From Candidatus Woesearchaeota archaeon (lineage in GTDB: Archaea > Nanobdellota > Nanobdellia > Woesearchaeales > GW2011-AR9): 64,000 nucleotides of DNA. Under the pieces are notes generated by a model. The model saw only the letters and a program-made list of their open reading frames with translations, did no database searches and was not told the DNA's origin. Positions 7,278 through 30,047 of this stretch are shown in pieces. The first letter of the stretch is position 1. The number at the start of each line of letters is the position of its first letter. A program made the translations under genes and the position numbers. The stretch is from assembly GCA_016188115.1 (NCBI GenBank), contig JACPIK010000002.1, forward strand, positions 1,395,771 to 1,459,770, given 5' to 3'.

Positions 7278-8090
7278 ATGCCCTCAGATCCTTCTCATCT
7301 GCTACATCCATTAGTTGCAGCCTATACTCCTGTTCCAATAATCACTCCTCCAGAATCTAGCTCAAATGGGTATATGGTTCTCTTCGTTCATGGGCTTCCA
7401 GGTCATGGGAATGGGGGATTTATGCGCAATGCTTCGGAAAAATTAGTACAAGAGGGATATGCAACTTGCCGTTACTCCCTTCGACGCGACAATTCTGTGT
7501 GGGAACATGTTAAAGATGTACGCAAGGTACTTGGCTCGCCTCTTCTGGCTTCAGTAAGACAATTAGGGGCTTTTCGTCACGTCAACTTTGAAGATCATGT
7601 ATCTGACTTAGGAGATATTATCGAAAATCTCACTACTTCTCATCAGGGTTCCTCCTCTTCTTTCACTTCTCAAAAAATAATTATTGCGGCACATTCTTAT
7701 GGTGCAGCCGTGGCATTAGCCGTTTCCAGTGCGTTTGATGCAGATGAGTCACCTATCGCCGGATTATTTTTAAGTAATCCATTCATCAGCAAAAGTGTTC
7801 GTCATCACGTTCTTCCTGGATTTAGTGGTATGCCGGATGTAGAAGAATTAACCCAATACGCCGCGTCATATTCTGGTCCTATAATGCTTTTGTATGGGGC
7901 ACATGATACCCTTGTTCCACCTGAAAATAATTCTATTCTGATTGCAGAATCAAGAGTAAATCATGCTACAGTTACAATCCCCCTCCCTCTTACAGGCCAA
8001 CCAGATCATGATTTTACCAGGCCGCAAACCCGTGAAGCGTACACTGCAAATCTTCTTACGTTTGTAAACTGGCTAAATCAAAAAAAGTAA
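7278..8090 (+). CDS. alpha/beta-fold hydrolase (second, divergent copy)
   Basis: 'FVHGLPGHGNGGF' and 'AAHSYGAAVA' (GxSxG-like). Confidence 0.55.
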   Translation: MPSDPSHLLHPLVAAYTPVPIITPPESSSNGYMVLFVHGLPGHGNGGFMRNASEKLVQEGYATCRYSLRRDNSVWEHVKDVRKVLGSPLLASVRQLGAFRHVNFEDHVSDLGDIIENLTTSHQGSSSSFTSQKIIIAAHSYGAAVALAVSSAFDADESPIAGLFLSNPFISKSVRHHVLPGFSGMPDVEELTQYAASYSGPIMLLYGAHDTLVPPENNSILIAESRVNHATVTIPLPLTGQPDHDFTRPQTREAYTANLLTFVNWLNQKK

Positions 8091-8105: not shown

Positions 8106-9620
8106 CTATCCATGATATCTATTCTTAATTTTTGATTGATGGGGATAATCATCAAATCGATATAATGTGATAACTGGTGTTGCTAAATGTGCCATCTTAT
8201 GGCATGTTGCTTTATATCCTTCATTCACCTCTTGAAGTGTTTTCATGACAAGTGTTTCGTATGTTTTTGTGAGAGCAGTTGAAACATTAACTCCCTTCTT
8301 AAGTTGAAATTCAATATGTAATTGCCTATTATGTTTAGCATCAAATTTAGTTGTAAACACAAATGCTCCTGATGTAGTTTGCGCAATTTGTTTGTTGCGA
8401 TAAATACACTCTTCAATATTCTCTGGGTAAATCATAAAAGCATTAAATTTGAGAGGGCCATCTTTTCGTCCTTCAATAAAAAAGAATGGAAGAGGAAGCG
8501 TAATTGTATGATTAATATTAAACTGTTTCAACAACTTTTCCATTTGCCGATAAGAATAAGTCCCACCAATATCTTCTAAATTATATTTTATGACGGGTTG
8601 AGCAGCTTCAGGTAGAATTGTTGTAAACACTAACTCTCGATCTTTATTTGCAAAGACAAACAAATTTAGTGGATATTGAAAGAGCATAGGTGTTTCATCC
8701 ACATCACCAAATATTGCCCGTCGAAACTCATGATTCGCATCAGCTAATTGACGAATAAAAACAGTATCGTCATTTTCAGTTCCACCAAGAATGCCAATGT
8801 CTGATGCACCAAAACCAGATCGCACTTTTGCTCCTCCTGCATTTTTATGAATATATGCTCGCCAACTTTCAGGAAAATCTTCTCCTCCTCCAATAAAATG
8901 AACCTTGTACTTTTTCCAATTGAATTTAAGAGAATTTGCATAATCCACAAAATCTTTGATGAATGGGGGATAACCCGTAATCAAGATTTGCTCAAACTTA
9001 CTTCCAATATCATTAATTGTTTGTAAAATTTCATCTTTATCAGGACCAATATTAATCACTGGGTTATGTCGAGACGCAAACTCGTTAAAATTTAATCCCG
9101 TAACCCAACTTCCTAGAATAAATCCATTAATAATTAATGTTTTTTTGGTATTTACATTAAAATTAAGATCTAACCCTACACTAATTGCATTCTTTCCAAA
9201 GTCGTCTTCTGCATGTGATTTTGCCCAATAACATTGTCTCCCTGAATGACCTGAACTTTTTACAATCATACTAATATTATGATAATCTCCATCAATACAC
9301 ATTGTCGAGAGTTCTTTTGCGCTATATACGTAGCCATGCTTATTCGTTTCGGGAACTTTTGTTAAGAAATCCTGTTTTGTTTTAACACTGCGTGGATCAA
9401 AATTATGTTTTTCTAGAAAATGTTTGTAGTGAGGAATACGTTGCGCGTTAAGTTGAAACGAGTGGATAAGATAGCGTTCTTGTAATGTTTCAACAAACTC
9501 CGGTTCAAGATCAAGAAATTGTGCTTTGAATGCTTCGTAATCTTTGCCTTGCTTTTGCAACTGTTTATGCACCATAGAAAAAGGTAAATTTCTTATTAGT
9601 GCATGCTTAATACGTCCCAT
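8106..9620 (-). CDS. adenylate-forming enzyme of the ANL superfamily (PaaK / F390-synthetase / GH3-like acyl-acid ligase)
   Basis: 504 aa. P-loop-like 'KSSGHSGRQ' (compare SSGTTGKP / SSGTSxGxxK), then 'FGASDIGILGGTE' (YGxTE-like) and 'YNLEDIGG' (YRxGD-like) at the expected spacing. Its start codon overlaps the panD stop ('TAATG'). Confidence 0.5.
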   Translation of the reverse strand: MGRIKHALIRNLPFSMVHKQLQKQGKDYEAFKAQFLDLEPEFVETLQERYLIHSFQLNAQRIPHYKHFLEKHNFDPRSVKTKQDFLTKVPETNKHGYVYSAKELSTMCIDGDYHNISMIVKSSGHSGRQCYWAKSHAEDDFGKNAISVGLDLNFNVNTKKTLIINGFILGSWVTGLNFNEFASRHNPVINIGPDKDEILQTINDIGSKFEQILITGYPPFIKDFVDYANSLKFNWKKYKVHFIGGGEDFPESWRAYIHKNAGGAKVRSGFGASDIGILGGTENDDTVFIRQLADANHEFRRAIFGDVDETPMLFQYPLNLFVFANKDRELVFTTILPEAAQPVIKYNLEDIGGTYSYRQMEKLLKQFNINHTITLPLPFFFIEGRKDGPLKFNAFMIYPENIEECIYRNKQIAQTTSGAFVFTTKFDAKHNRQLHIEFQLKKGVNVSTALTKTYETLVMKTLQEVNEGYKATCHKMAHLATPVITLYRFDDYPHQSKIKNRYHG

Positions 9621-9970
9621 TATAAGTACCGTTCAAATTTATTTTTCTTGTCAACAAGAATACACTTTGGTTTAATAGGTTTGTTGGTAATCTCAAACGC
9701 CATTATAATTATTTCATGTCCTTTCTTAATCAAATGAGAGCACGCGCCATTCATGCAAATAACACCTGAGTTTTTCGGACCAGCAATGGTATATGTCTCG
9801 AGTCGAGCACCAGTGGTGTTGCTCGTTACCAGCACTTTTTCACCAGGCCAGATATTGGCTTTTTTGAGCAAGACTTCATCAATCGTGATACTGCCAATGT
9901 AATGCAGCTTTGCCTCAGTGACTGTAGCTTTATGGATTTTAGATTTAAGAACGATGCGCATGAAAATCAA
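9620..9970 (-). CDS. panD: aspartate 1-decarboxylase, pyruvoyl-dependent (PanD)
   Basis: '[23 protein letters not shown]' contains the Gly-Ser self-cleavage site. '[10 protein letters not shown]', '[14 protein letters not shown]' and 'GHEIIIMAF' align with bacterial PanD. Confidence 0.85.
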
Positions 9971-10075
9971 CCTCTCTTTACAAATAAGGGCCTTGTACTG
10001 TTAAAAACATTCTTCACTATTATTGGGGGGTGAAAGTTCAAAATATTTATATACCAGTCCCAATTTAACCATTTT

Positions 10076-11983
10076 ATGCCTATTTTCAATGTGGGGGCTG
10101 CGCTAGCACCACGAGAGTCATTTGATGGACTTATCGAGAAATACGGTTCTCCCACGTTGAATGCTCCTCAAGTCGATATTGAGAATGCGGTAGCTCATCG
10201 AACATGGTTAGCATTAGCAAAATACGTTGAATTTCTCAACCCACAGTTCCTCAATGGCTTGTTTCAAGGAATAGAACTTCCTACTCAAGGGATGAGTATT
10301 GATGAACATGTTTTTCCTCCTACAGTTGATCGTGTTCTTTCCGCTCAAGCACGTCAAGCCTATGCTATTTTAGAACTGAACCCTCGTCATTTTGGCAGTG
10401 TCGAAACTCGACTTAAGTTATTTGACAATTTAGTCCGCACTACTAATGATCCTCTTGCATGTTTTAATGCAGGTCGTAGTGTTCGTGTTGTTCCAGATCT
10501 AAATCCTCTACGAGCCGGATTTCTTGACATCCAAAAAGGATTAGCAAAAGCATTTGGCGCTAATCCAGGCAAATTACTTGAAAGCAGACTCGAACCAGCT
10601 AATGCTGCGCTTAATAGATTTCTTAGCGTGAGTGGAGCAGGATATGGGGGCAATTACCTTAACATTCGTGTTGAATATTTCCCTGGTTGTGACATCTCTC
10701 CATTAGGTGATCAATATACTTTGGGTGTACTTGTTGCAGGATTGGAACAAATCGCAGCATATAAAAAATTAGAAATTCGCTGCATCCAATCACCATTTGA
10801 TCCTCAGACAGAAAGACAAAAATTAGGGTTAGCTACTCGCGGCGTTGAGTATGACTTGAGTAATTATCATCAAACTAACGGCCCTGTTTTTATCTATCGT
10901 TTAGAATATCATGAAAAAGCAGAGTGGTTCAACCGTATCGGACGTGCCATCGTTGATTTTTCCCGACGTCATATCCCTTCTCGTCAATCAAAAGCAGTAC
11001 TAACTTCGCAAGAAGCAGTAATGCGACTGTTAACCAGCGAAAGACAAGCAGACGAAGCGCGAGAAGCAGGATATAGGTCTACTCTTGCTGCCGCCGTTGC
11101 CCGTGCCGATGCCGCCGAAGCAGAAAGAGAAGCAGAATCCCAACGTAGTGCCGCATTAGAAGCGCAACTTGAAAATGCTCGTATGGTTGCACGTAACCAA
11201 GAAGTAGGGGAATATCTTCGCACTTCTATTCATGATATCATCAATGCGTTTAATGTAGTTCGAGCTGAATTAATCACTACGGGGGGAGCAGTATTAAAAT
11301 CTCTATATTCTCCCGCGGAGGAAATTTTGCCTTCCAATCTTGTTGAAGATAAACGGTCATTGAGAGAAATTGTATCTCCATTATTAGAAGATTCTGTTGA
11401 AAGCATAGTCCGATCTTATGCATCCCATCTTGTAGATCAAGTTCAAGCAATAGATGAACAAGTTCTACGTCTTCGTCAGGTTATGAAACCAGAATCCGTT
11501 GCTCAAGTAACTGATGTTGCTTATGGTCAATCGATTGATCGTGTAATCAAAAAAGTAAGAACTCGGTTTCCTTCTGCAACTATTGAATACTCTTCCCCAG
11601 ATGATTCACATACTGTAAGTGTTAATGGAAATTTATTGGAGATGGTTTTATTCAATTTAGTTAATAATGCCATAGAAGGCTGTGTTGAAAATGGTTATGA
11701 CTCAAATCTTCGTATTCACTGTAGCACCCTAGATAGAGAGGACCATTATCGAGAGCGCATTATCATTTATCAGCAAGCTCCTATTCCTGAAAATATTTTA
11801 GGGGATCTTAACGCTGGGGTTGCCAAGAGTTCAAAAGGTGATAAAGGAAGTGCCGTAGGTGCTAGCAGCAGTCGTAAAATGGTGGTTGATGTGATGGGCG
11901 GAGATCTTCGTTGGCAAAGTCCAGTAAAAGCAGCAGGATATGGAGCAGCAACAGTTATAGAATTATATAGTAAAGATAAATAA
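10076..11983 (+). CDS. soluble histidine-kinase-like protein: novel N-terminal domain, Ala/Arg-rich coiled coil, H-box and HATPase_c
   Basis: H-box-like 'YLRTSIHDIINAFNVV'. ATPase N-box 'LEMVLFNLVNNAIEG', G-rich 'GDKGSAVGASSS', C-terminal 'VIELY'. No TM segments. GC is visibly higher than in the flanking genes. Confidence 0.55.
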   Translation: MPIFNVGAALAPRESFDGLIEKYGSPTLNAPQVDIENAVAHRTWLALAKYVEFLNPQFLNGLFQGIELPTQGMSIDEHVFPPTVDRVLSAQARQAYAILELNPRHFGSVETRLKLFDNLVRTTNDPLACFNAGRSVRVVPDLNPLRAGFLDIQKGLAKAFGANPGKLLESRLEPANAALNRFLSVSGAGYGGNYLNIRVEYFPGCDISPLGDQYTLGVLVAGLEQIAAYKKLEIRCIQSPFDPQTERQKLGLATRGVEYDLSNYHQTNGPVFIYRLEYHEKAEWFNRIGRAIVDFSRRHIPSRQSKAVLTSQEAVMRLLTSERQADEAREAGYRSTLAAAVARADAAEAEREAESQRSAALEAQLENARMVARNQEVGEYLRTSIHDIINAFNVVRAELITTGGAVLKSLYSPAEEILPSNLVEDKRSLREIVSPLLEDSVESIVRSYASHLVDQVQAIDEQVLRLRQVMKPESVAQVTDVAYGQSIDRVIKKVRTRFPSATIEYSSPDDSHTVSVNGNLLEMVLFNLVNNAIEGCVENGYDSNLRIHCSTLDREDHYRERIIIYQQAPIPENILGDLNAGVAKSSKGDKGSAVGASSSRKMVVDVMGGDLRWQSPVKAAGYGAATVIELYSKDK

Positions 11984-12003: not shown

Positions 12004-12663
12004 TTAAATATCGTCTCCTTGTCCTTGTAGGCGATCTTCTAAATTTCTCACCCAACTAGGGTTAAGAATTCGGATCGGCGAATTAGGTAATGGATTTTTA
12101 GCAAGAAGTGCGTTATAATGTCGTTCTGCATCTTGCACCAGCTGTGCCACAGTTTGACCGTATGTCACTGTTCTGTCTGATCCTGGAACGCCATGTTTCT
12201 TGCGGTATGTTACATCAATCCCTTCGATACCTACTACTTTTCCAACGGCACGAGCTGGGTTTCCATTTGCGTCAAGAACTGTTCCTTCTTTCACTGCTCC
12301 GACATTCAAAATTCTCGTAGCATCAGTTGTAACAAATGAAAGTAAGTAAAGACCTAAACGAGTCTGTGACGGCTTATGTTTTTGTGACTCGTAGAGTTTT
12401 ACTAATTCTGAACCTAATAAACGTGCTGCTTCAACACCATCTCCCATTCCAACTCTTCCTTGCGGATCAATATGGACATCATAAATAAACATTGAACCTG
12501 GTTGAATTGTTTGTATGAATTTTTCAGGATGATATGCATTAGCTAAAGGAAGGGGCACTACTCTAACATTTAATGGAGAAAGTGCTCTATCTGCATCCTC
12601 GACTCTTGCTGCTTCATTTTCTAACATATATACATTTTGTATTGTAGCCATATTAATCACCAA
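12004..12663 (-). CDS. hypothetical protein, paralog A of a tandem pair
   Basis: 219 aa. Shares 'HIDPQGRVGMGDGVEAA...KLYE...LSFVTTD...NPSWVRN' blocks with the adjacent gene. Confidence 0.5.
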   Translation of the reverse strand: MVINMATIQNVYMLENEAARVEDADRALSPLNVRVVPLPLANAYHPEKFIQTIQPGSMFIYDVHIDPQGRVGMGDGVEAARLLGSELVKLYESQKHKPSQTRLGLYLLSFVTTDATRILNVGAVKEGTVLDANGNPARAVGKVVGIEGIDVTYRKKHGVPGSDRTVTYGQTVAQLVQDAERHYNALLAKNPLPNSPIRILNPSWVRNLEDRLQGQGDDI

Positions 12664-13392: not shown

Positions 13393-14193
13393 CTATTTCA
13401 CACTAATCGTCACAACATCGCCATCAACACTGGCTCCTCGTGTTGTTCCTTCTAGTTTAAATACGGCATCCCCAGAACCAACAACCATTGAACCAGTGAA
13501 ATAATACACTGCTGCTTTCTCGTTAACCAAATTATACGTTAACTTACCTCCTACCGAAAGAGTCCCATCACCAGCAGGCATTACCACATCTTTGAGAGCA
13601 ACGTGACCAACATCTAATTTCTTAAATGTTAAATCAGAAATAACAATCTCCATATCTCTGCCTGACTCCAACGCAACACCATTCACACCAATGCGACGTG
13701 CTTTTCCTGCAAGAGATAATGAAGAGCCACTTAACACAAAGTCTCCTTCAAAATCGCCAATATCTAACGTAACACCCTGTAAATTATTCAACTCTAACCG
13801 ATCATTATTAACTTGGATAGAGGTTGTTAAATCGTCAAACACTAATTCCATTTGTTTTACACTCACTTTCTTGGAAAGAGCAGGAACTTTATTAAACGAC
13901 AACGTGACTGGAACATCACGAGTACCTCGTGAGACTTCTTGTTTAAACACTTTCTCTAAAGGATTATCATCAGTAGATACACTGCTAAATTCTTCTGCCT
14001 CTTGGCTATCACCAAATAATGTTGATCCTGATTTAGAAGGTGAACTCTCTTCAGATCTGGTATCACTTATGGCTCCACCGGTAATGGTTCCATCTTTGAA
14101 CACAAACAGTAACGCTACCGCACCAAGCACAATGATACCCATTACTATGTAGAATTTGATATTGGAATCCTTTTTAGGATATTTATCGTACAT
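13393..14193 (-). CDS. N-terminally membrane-anchored extracellular beta-rich protein
   Basis: One TM 'FYIVMGIIVLGAVALLFVF' followed by a Ser/Thr/Gly/Val-rich ectodomain. Confidence 0.45.
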   Translation of the reverse strand: MYDKYPKKDSNIKFYIVMGIIVLGAVALLFVFKDGTITGGAISDTRSEESSPSKSGSTLFGDSQEAEEFSSVSTDDNPLEKVFKQEVSRGTRDVPVTLSFNKVPALSKKVSVKQMELVFDDLTTSIQVNNDRLELNNLQGVTLDIGDFEGDFVLSGSSLSLAGKARRIGVNGVALESGRDMEIVISDLTFKKLDVGHVALKDVVMPAGDGTLSVGGKLTYNLVNEKAAVYYFTGSMVVGSGDAVFKLEGTTRGASVDGDVVTISVK

Positions 14194-26847: not shown

Positions 26848-28155
26848 TCAATCTAAGTTATCGATGTTTTTAGCTAGTGCATTTAATCCTCTTAACAGAT
26901 CATCATAAGTGTAAAAAGATACTTCCCCCAGATTCCTTGATTTAAACTCTCTTAGTTTCTCCTGTTCATAATCTTTTTCACAACCCATAATCAGAACACC
27001 TTTAACTCGGTTTATATCTTCTACTTTTAGATTACCTATTCCTTTTAGAACGGCTGATTTTTCATCACTTACTAAGTGAATCCAATTGTTCACTTGATCT
27101 AGTGCGTGTTGCATTTCTCTCTTTGTTTCACCATTTTTCTTCATTATTTGGAATGAAGGTTTTTCAATTTCTATAAGAAGAAGATCTTTCCTGTTTGTTA
27201 CTATACAAAAGTCAGTTTTATACTTACTCAAGATAGGCATTTTGTTATAAATCATCTCTGGCGAAAAAAGACTTAGTATTAATGTATTCCTTTCAATAAA
27301 TTTTTGAACTTCTTCTTCTCCAGGGTTACTTTCTATTAATAGTTTAAATGCATCAATTATTTTAATTATTGAAGCTTTTGTATAATAATTCTGTGCAGAT
27401 ATAATTTTTTGACTGCCATTTTTGACTTTTCCTAATAAAGCGTGAAAGTTTTCACGTATGTATTTGAGACTAAATGAAGAATTCCTACACTTACAAGAGA
27501 AAATATCTGGTAAATCCTCAAACCAGATATCTCCTTTTTCCTCAAATACTTTATCTCTCTCTAAACCTACATAAATCTTAAGTTCTGCTTTGCAGTTTTT
27601 ACAACCAAGTTGAATTGCTATTTTCTTTGAGATGGCGGGGTCAGCTTTTAGAGCAGCAATCCTCTCTTTACTTAAGGGGGGAACTTTTTGATAATGAAAA
27701 GTAACTGACCCGATTGGGATTTTTTCACCATCTTGTTCTAAAAAAATATTAAGTGTCGTCGGTTCGGATAAAATTATATCCTTCTCGAAGTCGCAGAGGA
27801 AAAGCGACCAACCCGTAGTTAAATCTCGAACTTTAATTGAAAAAGTATTTCCCCTATCAACGTTTAAATTTCTTTTATTGATTCCTTGTTCGTGATATTT
27901 TAAAGACATTTTTTGAATTAGAAGTCCGTTCTGATCCAAAAATTCTAGATTTGTATCTTTTAAATTTTTAACGTCATAAATCGCGAATACTAATTTTTTA
28001 AATTCTTTAAGATTTATAGGAAAGATGAGACAAAAACAGTTAGAGTTAATACCTATTAAATTGTGGTACCAACTTCTATAATCTCCCTCTCTAATCGACT
28101 CTCCTTTCTCACACAAACCTAAGAAAGCTACTCTGGGAATAATATTACTGCTCAT
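26848..28155 (-). CDS. AT-rich hypothetical protein with a C-terminal PD-(D/E)xK-like nuclease signature (possible DUF4263 / Shedu-like)
   Basis: C-terminal 'KTDFCIVTNRKDLLLIEIEKP...QHALDQVNNW' reads as a D...E-x-K-type core. Internal CxxC...CxC 'CKNCKAEL...CKCRN'. Composition is distinctly more AT-rich than the flanking uppS and mutL. Confidence 0.3.
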   Translation of the reverse strand: MSSNIIPRVAFLGLCEKGESIREGDYRSWYHNLIGINSNCFCLIFPINLKEFKKLVFAIYDVKNLKDTNLEFLDQNGLLIQKMSLKYHEQGINKRNLNVDRGNTFSIKVRDLTTGWSLFLCDFEKDIILSEPTTLNIFLEQDGEKIPIGSVTFHYQKVPPLSKERIAALKADPAISKKIAIQLGCKNCKAELKIYVGLERDKVFEEKGDIWFEDLPDIFSCKCRNSSFSLKYIRENFHALLGKVKNGSQKIISAQNYYTKASIIKIIDAFKLLIESNPGEEEVQKFIERNTLILSLFSPEMIYNKMPILSKYKTDFCIVTNRKDLLLIEIEKPSFQIMKKNGETKREMQHALDQVNNWIHLVSDEKSAVLKGIGNLKVEDINRVKGVLIMGCEKDYEQEKLREFKSRNLGEVSFYTYDDLLRGLNALAKNIDNLD

Positions 28156-28238: not shown

Positions 28239-30047
28239 ATGCCTACAATTCATGTTCTTAGCGAAGACGTCATCAATAAAATTGCAGCAGGCGAAGTTAT
28301 TGAACGGCCTGCATCCGTAGTCAAAGAGTTAGTAGAAAACTCCATCGATGCTGGTGCAACCAAAATCACGGTTGACATTGAAAATGTAGGCAGAGATCTC
28401 ATCTGCATCACTGACAATGGGTCAGGTATGAATTCAGAAGATGCAAAACTCTCCATCATTCGACATGCAACGAGTAAGTTAAGTACAGCAGACGATCTTT
28501 TCAACATTCAATCGCTTGGATTTCGTGGAGAAGCTCTCGCTTCTATTGCTGCTGTAAGTACTCTTTCCATTTCGACAAAACAAAAGAAAAACATCGAAGG
28601 CTACATGATCACCATTCGTGGTGGTACGATTCAAAAAGAAGGTTCATGTGCTCACGAGCAAGGCACAACTATTGAAGTAAAATCACTTTTTTTCAATACA
28701 CCGGCGCGTCTCAAATTTCTCAAAACCGATGCCGTGGAATTGCGCCATATCATTGATGTAGTAACCCAATATGCATTGATTCATCCCGAAATCTCTTTCA
28801 CTCTTACTCACAATAACTCCTCTCTTATCGAGGCACCTAAAGTCGAAGATCTACGCCAACGCATTGCGTTTCTCTATGGTGTATCAATAGCCAAAGATTT
28901 AGTACCTATTCAAACCAAGGGTGATGGCTTTACTCTAAACGGTTTTTTAGGCACACCAATGCAATCACGTAATGACAAAGCGCAACAGGCTTTGTATGTT
29001 AACAAACGCTGGATTAAGAATACTGATTTACGTGATGCTGTGTATGAAGGATATCATTCGATGTTGTTTCATGGTAAACATCCGATCTTTGTGTTAGACA
29101 TCGAACTCGATGCTCAACGTATTGATGTTAATATCCATCCCCAGAAATCAGAGATCAAAATCGAACAGCGTGATGAGATTTGCAGTGCGATTACGCAAGC
29201 GGTTAAACACGCACTTTCAACGAATAATCTTATTCCTGATGTGACGCCACGGTTTGAAAATGTTAGTGGATTTTCTAAACCAAGCAAGTACTCATTTGAA
29301 AAAGCAACGCAACAAGTATTGCCGATTGAGAGAGAAGAAAGAACACGATCAATTCCACAAGTAAAAGAAAGTGCCGCAGTCTATCAACAAGACTCAGACT
29401 CTTCCTCTGCTCCTAGTTCCATTAGCAATTTTCCATTTACCTCATCTCCTGCTGAGTTTCATTCTTCTCTTCCTACAATGCGTTTGTTAGGTCAAATTCA
29501 CAAAACATTCTTTGTTGCCGAAAGTGATGGTGGAGCATATTTTATCGATCAACATGCGGCACACGAACGAGTACTCTACGAGGAATTGATGGGCGATCTC
29601 ACTTTGGGTCAAATTGCACCGCAAGTATTGCTTCAAGCAGCAGTAATCGATCTCGCCCCACGGGATGTTCCCATTGTGACACAGCATCTTTCTTTCTTAC
29701 ATCAGCTTGGTTTTACACTCGAATCATTTGGAACCAATAGTTTTTCACTCAAAACGCTTCCGAGTATCTTTGGTCGACAGCAACCTAAAGAACTCTTTGC
29801 TGACATGTTGGGCATTCTGCAAGAAGAAGGGAAAAACACGTTGGAGAAACTACGTGAAACTATTCTCACTCGTATGGCTTGTCGTGCTGCCGTGATGGCG
29901 GGTGATCCAGTCACCATCCCCGAAATGGAATTGATCCTACATCAACTTTCTCAAACCCAACATCCCTATACCTGTCCCCATGGCCGTCCAACGGTGATTA
30001 GAGTGAGCGCAGAAGAGCTCGAGAAGAAGTTTAAAAGGAAAGGGTAA
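28239..30047 (+). CDS. mutL: DNA mismatch repair protein MutL
   Basis: GHKL ATPase N-terminus 'KIAAGEVIERPASVVKELVENSIDAGAT', 'GFRGEALASI', and a C-terminal dimerisation/endonuclease region. Confidence 0.85.
   Translation: MPTIHVLSEDVINKIAAGEVIERPASVVKELVENSIDAGATKITVDIENVGRDLICITDNGSGMNSEDAKLSIIRHATSKLSTADDLFNIQSLGFRGEALASIAAVSTLSISTKQKKNIEGYMITIRGGTIQKEGSCAHEQGTTIEVKSLFFNTPARLKFLKTDAVELRHIIDVVTQYALIHPEISFTLTHNNSSLIEAPKVEDLRQRIAFLYGVSIAKDLVPIQTKGDGFTLNGFLGTPMQSRNDKAQQALYVNKRWIKNTDLRDAVYEGYHSMLFHGKHPIFVLDIELDAQRIDVNIHPQKSEIKIEQRDEICSAITQAVKHALSTNNLIPDVTPRFENVSGFSKPSKYSFEKATQQVLPIEREERTRSIPQVKESAAVYQQDSDSSSAPSSISNFPFTSSPAEFHSSLPTMRLLGQIHKTFFVAESDGGAYFIDQHAAHERVLYEELMGDLTLGQIAPQVLLQAAVIDLAPRDVPIVTQHLSFLHQLGFTLESFGTNSFSLKTLPSIFGRQQPKELFADMLGILQEEGKNTLEKLRETILTRMACRAAVMAGDPVTIPEMELILHQLSQTQHPYTCPHGRPTVIRVSAEELEKKFKRKG

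Follow-up and report, generated by a model that had tools for sequence, protein, structure and literature searches.

A panD gene coupled to a PaaK-like adenylating enzyme in Woesearchaeota: a candidate source of N-acyl-beta-alanine-type molecules

What does an aspartate 1-decarboxylase do next to an adenylating enzyme in an archaeon? The question is raised by a stretch of 64,000 nucleotides from a Candidatus Woesearchaeota archaeon (assembly GCA_016188115.1, contig JACPIK010000002.1, positions 1,395,771 to 1,459,770), here referred to as the window, in which panD and the gene of a 504-aa protein, called LIG in the following, overlap by one base. The archaeal route to coenzyme A (CoA) comprises PoK and the archaeal phosphopantothenate synthetase (PPS), with beta-alanine normally supplied by a pyridoxal phosphate (PLP)-dependent enzyme (PMC6650551). 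CoA-pathway genes are reported to be missing from Nanoarchaeota and some further parasitic DPANN archaea, which reportedly rely on hosts for their coenzymes (PMC6650551). The background on archaeal CoA synthesis was correctly given in the initial annotation, which was made from the sequence alone and proposed a two-step module that makes beta-alanine and then ligates it.

The panD-LIG pair represents an ANL superfamily ligase fed by a decarboxylase, and the ligase comes from an uncharacterised family whose phyletic distribution is unusual. We tentatively read the pair as a conserved operon in which PanD feeds LIG and an N-acyl-beta-alanine-type product is formed, a reading in which our confidence falls a little short of even. 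A search of the literature revealed no paper describing a gene cluster for N-acyl-beta-alanine.

The PanD and LIG proteins

The panD product matches the Pfam family Asp_decarbox (PF02261) with an E-value of 9e-40 (135.6 bits, above the threshold of 25) and passes the curated cutoff of the NCBIfam model panD (TIGR00223; 113.9 bits, cutoff 106). In the alignment with PanD from M. tuberculosis (2c45, E=1.6e-24) the equivalents of Lys9, His11, Tyr22, Gly24-Ser25, Arg54, Thr57, Tyr58 and Asn72 are all kept. The self-processing site G23-S24 within YIGSITID is invariant in the ten PanDs which are linked to LIG, and so are K8, H10, Y21, R53, T56, Y57 and N71. These comparisons identify the window PanD as an intact and, by its sequence, genuine pyruvoyl enzyme. 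The clear PanD match including the Gly-Ser site, which had been noticed initially, is thereby confirmed, as are the equivalents of Ser25, Lys9 and Tyr58 on which it had been made to depend.

As listed, the open reading frame covers 9620-9970 and opens at a TTG at 9970. An ATG at 9961 is the likely start, because the NCBI record P0121 ('aspartate 1-decarboxylase [Ca. Woesearchaeota]', 100% identical to the window PanD) is 113 aa long and a GAGAGGT is found eight bases upstream, which overlaps the alternative TTG. Both reading frames of the annotated pair are thus found on the minus strand, and only the start of panD has to be moved. Base 9620 is common to the panD stop TAA (9622-9620) and the LIG start ATG (9620-9618), and the TAATG overlap reported earlier is seen in the minus-strand sequence.

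LIG, which is 100% identical to HYV86_07555, matches no Pfam model, the AMP-binding and GH3 (PF03321) models included. In NCBIfam it obtains weak matches to PaaK, FlxY and F390 only (PaaK E=3.9e-7), which stay far below the cutoffs: 28.9 against 646.3 bits for the PaaK equivalog TIGR02155 and 14.4 against 458.7 bits for F390_ftsA (TIGR03335). Homology to PanC or to the archaeal phosphopantothenate synthetase is absent among its Pfam and NCBIfam matches. A family profile built from 37 homologues finds PaaK structures in the PDB at E=1.6e-17 and, more weakly, LuxE (E=2.9e-6), Cfl and AjiA1. With the AlphaFold (AF2) model of LIG, whose predicted local distance difference test score (pLDDT) is 90.1, Foldseek retrieved PaaK1/2, BT_0428, ClxA, AjiA1, HCL and NatL2 at E-values of 1e-23 to 1e-16. 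The match to PaaK1 (E=7.6e-23, template modelling score 0.56-0.70) covers the two-domain ANL fold. Invariant across the 37 homologues are S122, G124, D274, Y346, D350, G352, G384, R385 and K499. The motifs KSSGHSGRQ, FGASDIGILGGTE and YNLEDIGG, in which adenylate-forming motifs had been recognised initially, are present in the translation and lie on the invariant positions S122/G124, D274 and Y346/D350/G352, respectively. All core motifs (P-loop, A5, ribose-binding Asp, hinge GRxD and A10 Lys) align to those of PaaK.

Sequence motifs and predicted fold together establish LIG as a member of the ANL superfamily, a kinship that is visible only from the weak NCBIfam PaaK matches, the profile search and the predicted fold, since no Pfam model covers it. 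Judged by its sequence LIG is a PaaK-like ANL enzyme and not a PaaK ortholog. With PaaK and PaaK-like enzymes (PDB 2y27, 2y4o, 4r1l) it shares the two-domain fold, the P-loop SSGxSG, the motif YG(A/x)(S/T)(D/E), the ribose-binding Asp, the GRxD hinge and the C-terminal catalytic Lys. It differs from them by an identity of only 13-18%, by about 70 additional residues, by the missing Pfam match and by a gene context that is not one of aromatic-acid catabolism. Of the PaaK, F390-synthetase and GH3 types that had been suggested for the 504-aa protein the first therefore stands, as PaaK-like; the profile searches proposed as a check gave the PaaK-like ANL fold and nothing with the AMP-binding and GH3 models of Pfam, and the F390 score is too low.

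The family is sizeable, uncharacterised and without a Pfam model: a whole-library profile search revealed 1,146 cluster representatives at E<=1e-30. Some members are named 'phenylacetate-CoA ligase' by JGI and NCBI. Most are found in DPANN archaea, in bacteria of the candidate phyla radiation (CPR/Patescibacteria) and in Legionellales; Poribacteria and Pedobacter contribute isolated members, and the names Chloroflexota, Phycisphaerales and Ca. Cybelea are each attached to single proteins. The poribacterial member (L009 4271-6628) is a 785-aa fusion of LIG with an N-terminal xylose-isomerase-like TIM barrel (PF01261).

Conservation of the pair and LIG relatives in bacteria

A further 47 LIG loci came from a scan of species-representative genomes and from look-ups of gene neighbourhoods. 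PanD stands directly upstream of LIG in 10 distinct archaeal (DPANN) loci, the window counted, with LIG identities down to 40%, so the pair, whose conservation in related genomes had been left to be checked, is indeed kept. In six of the relatives the two genes overlap by 4-11 nt or are separated by 2-9 nt, which makes seven such junctions including the window. Larger gaps are found in L010 (45 nt) and L013 (118 nt), and in L046 the gene of an alpha/beta-hydrolase, ABH1, stands between PanD and LIG. The pairwise identity matrices of PanD and LIG are correlated (Mantel r=0.90, p=2e-4; within clade A r=0.66, p=0.007), which indicates that the two genes were inherited together.

Other decarboxylases are found in the same slot. 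A gene of the phosphatidylserine (PS) decarboxylase family (PS_Dcarbxylase, a pyruvoyl enzyme; Pfam 1.4e-44) follows LIG in L019 and L021. The LIG of L014 also falls inside the PanD clade, but there a PLP-dependent decarboxylase (Pfam 5e-28) takes the place of PanD; its best NCBIfam match is the PLP aspartate decarboxylase PanP, far below the cutoff. LIG clade A is associated with another PanD subtype than clade B. As far as the sequences indicate, a decarboxylase was recruited beside LIG about four independent times, and the feature which these enzymes share is a primary-amine product. The recruitments are the strongest argument for a functional link and suggest that the shared product matters. 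We reject coincidental adjacency in view of the independent recruitment of non-homologous decarboxylases together with the co-inheritance, and from the side of the ligase there is good support for a functional link between PanD and LIG.

In CPR bacteria LIG shares operons with a ThiF-like protein (N-half of the Rv1355c family, 1.3e-88), a ScyB-like amino-acid dehydrogenase (1e-78) and an Acg-type flavin oxidase (6e-57), the last of which also matches the C-half of Rv1355c. Operons which contain these three genes, LIG and a histidine kinase gene were seen in L024-L034, L036, L040, L043-L045, L051 and L055; an example of the complete five-part arrangement is L029 6868-13293. Single-polypeptide fusions exist as well, namely LIG-ThiF, ThiF-LIG and dehydrogenase-LIG-ThiF (P0309, P0338, P0346; 1242 aa for the fusion with the dehydrogenase). 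Another fusion protein, P0326 (1174 aa), joins a LuxD-family acyl transferase (LuxD-like hydrolase) domain to LIG. In P0370 the 470 aa N-terminal to LIG show a GxSxG motif by eye and no Pfam match. The Legionellales homologues (L049-L054; Legionella, Legionellales, Coxiellaceae) are 746-794 aa long with an N-terminal extension of about 190 aa and a large internal insertion, and in L049, L050 and L052 they adjoin an Acg-type oxidase.

ThiF-like cyclases and flavin oxidases are known to convert N-acyl-Tyr and N-acyl-Trp, which are made by an acyl-CoA N-acyltransferase, into N-acyl oxazolones, and Rv1355c is TrzS (PMC10404671, PMC12856293). The cyclase and oxidase of the TyzACB, TrzAS and OxzAB systems are the types that are clustered or fused with the CPR relatives of LIG; the difference is the acyl-CoA-dependent N-acyltransferase there and an ANL ligase here (PMC10404671, PMC12856293). 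The CPR operons resemble an N-acyl-oxazolone pathway with an ANL ligase in place of the acyltransferase. As an acyltransferase is not apparent among the genes conserved in these operons, LIG is the candidate for the N-acylating enzyme, and by inference the family would make N-acyl amino acids or amines at the expense of ATP. The literature searched contains no description of such a variant of the oxazolone pathway with an ANL ligase.

The proposed reaction and competing explanations

The ThiF-like cyclase and the Acg-type flavin oxidase are absent from the window locus, where a decarboxylase is present instead. An oxazolone ring is therefore not expected in Woesearchaeota, and the arrangement points to N-acyl-beta-alanine. 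PanD would convert L-aspartate to beta-alanine, and LIG would adenylate a carboxylic acid with ATP and pass the acyl group to the amine of beta-alanine. A possible acid is a fatty or aryl one which the adjoining alpha/beta-hydrolases set free. Hydrolase or patatin-like neighbours and the P0326 fusion would be in keeping with a fatty acid that is liberated by a hydrolase, as in LuxD/LuxE, where an alpha/beta-hydrolase also stands beside a PaaK-like adenylating enzyme. The window locus differs from that system in that a LuxC reductase is missing and its two hydrolases ABH1 and ABH2 do not match the LuxD Pfam model. The divergently encoded, presumably cytoplasmic kinase and the receiver-like partners would probably regulate the operon or sense its product. 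Beta-alanine as co-substrate of LIG, the amide bond, the acid used and the role of the kinase are what we infer here.

ANL or PaaK-like enzymes such as AjiA1, NatL2, ClxA, the coronafacate ligase Cfl and the plant GH3 amido synthetases transfer the acyl group from the adenylate to an amine or hydroxyl and not to CoA. AjiA1, NatL2 and ClxA (benzoxazole pathways) and Cfl are among the structural or profile matches of LIG, the GH3 enzymes are not. LIG has no specific sequence affinity to any of them, and their partners are not decarboxylases or kinases.

Compared with the module proposed initially, the order of making beta-alanine and then ligating it is strengthened by the three non-homologous decarboxylases in the slot and by the CPR clusters and fusions of the N-acyl-oxazolone type, and a pantothenate-like product finds no support. 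Genes for ketopantoate or pantoate, pantothenate and CoA synthesis were not found at window positions ~1-40,000 (precomputed Pfam), where, as had been stated, pantoate-pathway genes and PanC are missing. That LIG might replace PanC or the archaeal phosphopantothenate synthetase without being homologous, joining (phospho)pantoate and beta-alanine, is accordingly very improbable. The neighbouring PanD and the lack of PanC in the window are all that speaks for it, and it has in common with the PanD-PanC and PoK/PPS routes the ATP-dependent condensation of beta-alanine with an acid. The folds of PanC and PPS are unrelated to that of LIG, pantoate genes are lacking near LIG, and the other contexts of the family (PS-decarboxylase family, ThiF, oxidase, dehydrogenase, hydrolases, kinase) have nothing to do with pantoate, and beta-alanine plays no part in them. 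In addition, most panD genes of the 113-aa type have no LIG nearby.

The last point was obtained by the reverse test, a metagenome scan with a PanD alignment and a positive control, of which the best 80 PanD loci were kept as a sample and not as a census. In none of them LIG, the kinase or the hydrolases were found within 4 kb, which rules out PanD as an enzyme dedicated to LIG in such organisms. The 113-aa type of the window PanD comprises more than 100 clusters at 70-79% identity (proteins P0124-P0240, loci L057-L080), and the clusters which carry a name belong to Patescibacteria lineages, unclassified bacteria, Woesearchaeota and Nanoarchaeota. Orphan PanDs of this type, to which the window PanD is about 75% identical, are widespread in CPR and DPANN, on contigs whose GC contents differ strongly. 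Inspection by eye of five of their loci (L057, L059, L067, L068, L072), the flanks of which were not annotated, showed no recognisable pantothenate genes. The rarity of PanD in such genomes that the initial annotation implied does not hold: from the PanD side the link to LIG is not exclusive. No paper naming aspartate 1-decarboxylase together with DPANN or Patescibacteria was found in a literature search.

The broad distribution of PanD independent of LIG in CPR and DPANN fits an explanation by CoA metabolism, which would link the two enzymes loosely: LIG would act as an ordinary aryl- or acyl-CoA ligase, and PanD would work in the supply or salvage of a CoA precursor. PaaK-type CoA ligases are the closest solved structures and the NCBIfam matches of LIG, and the 'phenylacetate-CoA ligase' names point the same way. 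We nevertheless consider this unlikely, in view of the large distance of LIG from the PaaK cutoff, the missing pantothenate and CoA genes in the ~40 kb examined and the lack of CoA-pathway genes reported for Nanoarchaeota and some further parasitic DPANN (PMC6650551). It also leaves unexplained why PanD is replaced by PS-decarboxylase-family and PLP enzymes and why LIG is fused to ThiF and to a dehydrogenase.

In another explanation, in our view equally unlikely, beta-alanine itself is the acid that LIG adenylates, and the beta-alanyl group is passed on to a different amine or thiol, giving a carnosine-like or beta-alanyl-amine product. The synteny and co-inheritance of panD and LIG serve this explanation as well as the preferred one, and the carboxylate of beta-alanine could be activated by an ANL enzyme. 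There is also a precedent, as the aspartate decarboxylase black of Drosophila supplies beta-alanine to ebony, an ANL-type beta-alanyl-amine synthase which forms amides. The likeness to panD-LIG is that of an aspartate decarboxylase feeding an ANL-type adenylating enzyme. Black is, however, PLP-dependent, ebony resembles nonribosomal peptide synthetases with a carrier domain and activates beta-alanine as acid, and the two do not form an operon. Beta-alanyl transfer would not cover L019 and L021, since the ethanolamine-type amines which PS-decarboxylase-type enzymes produce have no carboxylate, and in the CPR context, where LIG would make the N-acyl amino acid for the ThiF cyclase, the amino compound is the nucleophile.

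Those two loci would fit well to a reversed order of the enzymes, in which LIG links aspartate (or serine) via its side chain to a partner and the pyruvoyl decarboxylase then removes the alpha-carboxyl group of the conjugate. Enzymes of the PS-decarboxylase family act on side-chain-linked serine with a free alpha-amine, and VinN and VinO in the pathways of beta-amino-acid macrolactams link first and decarboxylate the conjugate thereafter. For the window we regard this order as quite improbable. Its PanD passes the panD equivalog cutoff, is close to the orphan PanDs and keeps Arg54, which in PanD structures binds the free beta-carboxylate of aspartate, and a gene for a carrier protein is lacking at the locus.

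Several points weigh against the formation of N-acyl-beta-alanine by PanD and LIG, too. The functions ascribed to both proteins are read from sequence, predicted fold and gene context. Adjacency tells neither what LIG receives from PanD as substrate nor in which order the enzymes act. The nearest characterised relatives of LIG, PaaK and BT_0428, are CoA ligases. The N-acyl-amino-acid chemistry is carried over from bacterial relatives which are only about 30% identical, and three DPANN LIG loci (L016, L007, L022) have no adjacent decarboxylase. PS-decarboxylase-family enzymes normally use lipid-bound serine and not free amino acids, and the trees are neighbour-joining trees from short alignments. 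As PanD is mostly an orphan in CPR and DPANN, it should have another, more general role, and the panD-LIG pairing may simply reuse it.

DPANN and CPR genomes are very small, so a multi-gene module which is kept in both likely matters to the symbiotic lifestyle. If LIG is an ATP-dependent synthetase of N-acyl amines or N-acyl amino acids, this would provide a function for more than 1,000 sequence clusters without a Pfam model, an ANL-based entry into N-acyl-amino-acid and oxazolone chemistry, and a role for PanD outside CoA synthesis. The conserved kinase suggests that the product of LIG or its precursor is sensed. One may go further and regard LIG and the nearly always adjacent histidine kinase as a small-molecule signalling module of symbionts with reduced genomes (DPANN, CPR, Legionellales), although we would not bet on it. 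An N-acyl amine or amino acid would then be produced by LIG, in Woesearchaeota N-acyl-beta-alanine and in CPR a compound that ThiF and oxidase turn into an oxazolone, and the cytoplasmic kinase would sense it. Such a module would amount to an autoinducer-like or host-communication system, and to our knowledge none has been described for such organisms.

Neighbouring genes and the divergent promoter region

The features of the locus are compiled in Table 1. Not mentioned in the initial annotation are a conserved histidine kinase, receiver-like genes and hydrolases, all of which are found near panD-LIG.

Table 1. Positions and strands in the window of the panD-LIG genes and the surrounding features, with the basis of each assignment.
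Feature	Position	Strand	Basis
ABH2, alpha/beta-hydrolase, 290 aa	6381..7253	+	Pfam Abhydrolase_1 E=7.7e-27
ABH1, alpha/beta-hydrolase, 270 aa, convergent with LIG	7278..8090	+	Pfam Hydrolase_4 E=1e-11
LIG, PaaK-like ANL-superfamily adenylating enzyme of an uncharacterised DPANN/CPR family, 504 aa	8106..9620	-	profiles, predicted fold, motifs
TAATG stop/start overlap of panD and LIG	9618..9622	-	read from sequence
panD, pyruvoyl-dependent aspartate 1-decarboxylase, 113 aa	9620..9961	-	Pfam, NCBIfam, catalytic residues, NCBI record
Divergent promoter region between panD-LIG and the kinase gene, 114 bp	9962..10075	.	conserved core
Shine-Dalgarno-like GAGAGGT	9970..9976	-	read from sequence; 8 nt upstream of panD ATG
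Palindrome TTCAC-N12-GTGAA	10013-10034		within divergent promoter region
TATA-like TTTATATA	10046-10053		within divergent promoter region
Histidine kinase, 635 aa	10076..11983	+	Pfam HATPase_c, invariant residues
RRa, receiver-like, 215-219 aa, paralogue of RRb	12004..12663	-	30% identity to RRb, E=2e-13
RRb, receiver-like, 215 aa	12679..13326	-	RRa paralogy, hhalign

The kinase consists of a family-specific N-terminal domain of ~330 aa, a coiled coil, the H-box (H386) and a HATPase_c core. Its match to the Pfam model HATPase_c (E=3e-5, 24.9 bits) lies just below the cutoff of 26.4, and H386, N531 and G595 of the H-box and of the N and G boxes are invariant in eight orthologues. It is probably cytoplasmic, because no hydrophobic segment of the sequence is visible by eye. 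A HATPase_c-type gene adjoins LIG in most DPANN and CPR loci. According to hhalign the N-terminal domains of the DPANN and CPR kinases show no homology and only the kinase core is common to both, which rules out that the LIG-linked kinases are one orthologous sensor. A homologue search with the N-terminal 340 aa (10076-11095) gave zero matches, not even the protein itself, despite the orthologues in eight loci. In L018 (9538-10889) two KaiC-family ATPase genes follow LIG, and an adjacent histidine kinase is missing; one of them matches PF06745 at 3e-59, the other is a paralogue from the same BLAST cluster.

Neither RRa nor RRb matches a Pfam model. Their family profile aligns to canonical receiver domains with an hhalign probability of 86% (E=4.7e-6). 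Beside the kinase and receiver block a 266-aa protein without family match is encoded (13393-14193, minus strand), which is found at the same place in L010 and L016.

The core of the divergent region and the position of its palindrome are kept in five Woesearchaeota loci. The consensus is TTYAC-N12-GTRAA, and its half-sites change symmetrically, as in L012 with TTTAC and GTAAA. Within the window the pattern occurs once, where 0.44 occurrences are expected by chance. Judged by this pattern, the palindrome probably serves as an operator.

Alpha/beta-hydrolases or a patatin-like gene are conserved neighbours of LIG. ABH1 stands beside LIG also in L010, L002, L012, L014 and L046. ABH2, for which NCBIfam gives only generic esterase/lactonase matches, accompanies LIG at short distance in at least 10 DPANN loci. 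In L002/L003 the two hydrolase genes of the LIG locus are separated by a short L-asparaginase-like gene (PF00710; 8225-8710), and a similar gene, as judged by eye, is located near the orphan PanD of L072 (3757-4275). Such a gene could act as supplier of aspartate.

The genes which flank the locus are archaeal housekeeping genes, for example those of aIF2-alpha, Nop10 and ribosomal proteins. A known defence system was rejected for the locus, as a PADLOC scan of eight of its proteins gave no matches. Farther away in the window (26848-28155, minus strand) a protein of 435 aa carries a Shedu-type SduA_C nuclease domain (PF14082). It is encoded divergently to a MutL homologue (28239-30047, plus strand) and may be the product of a defence gene.

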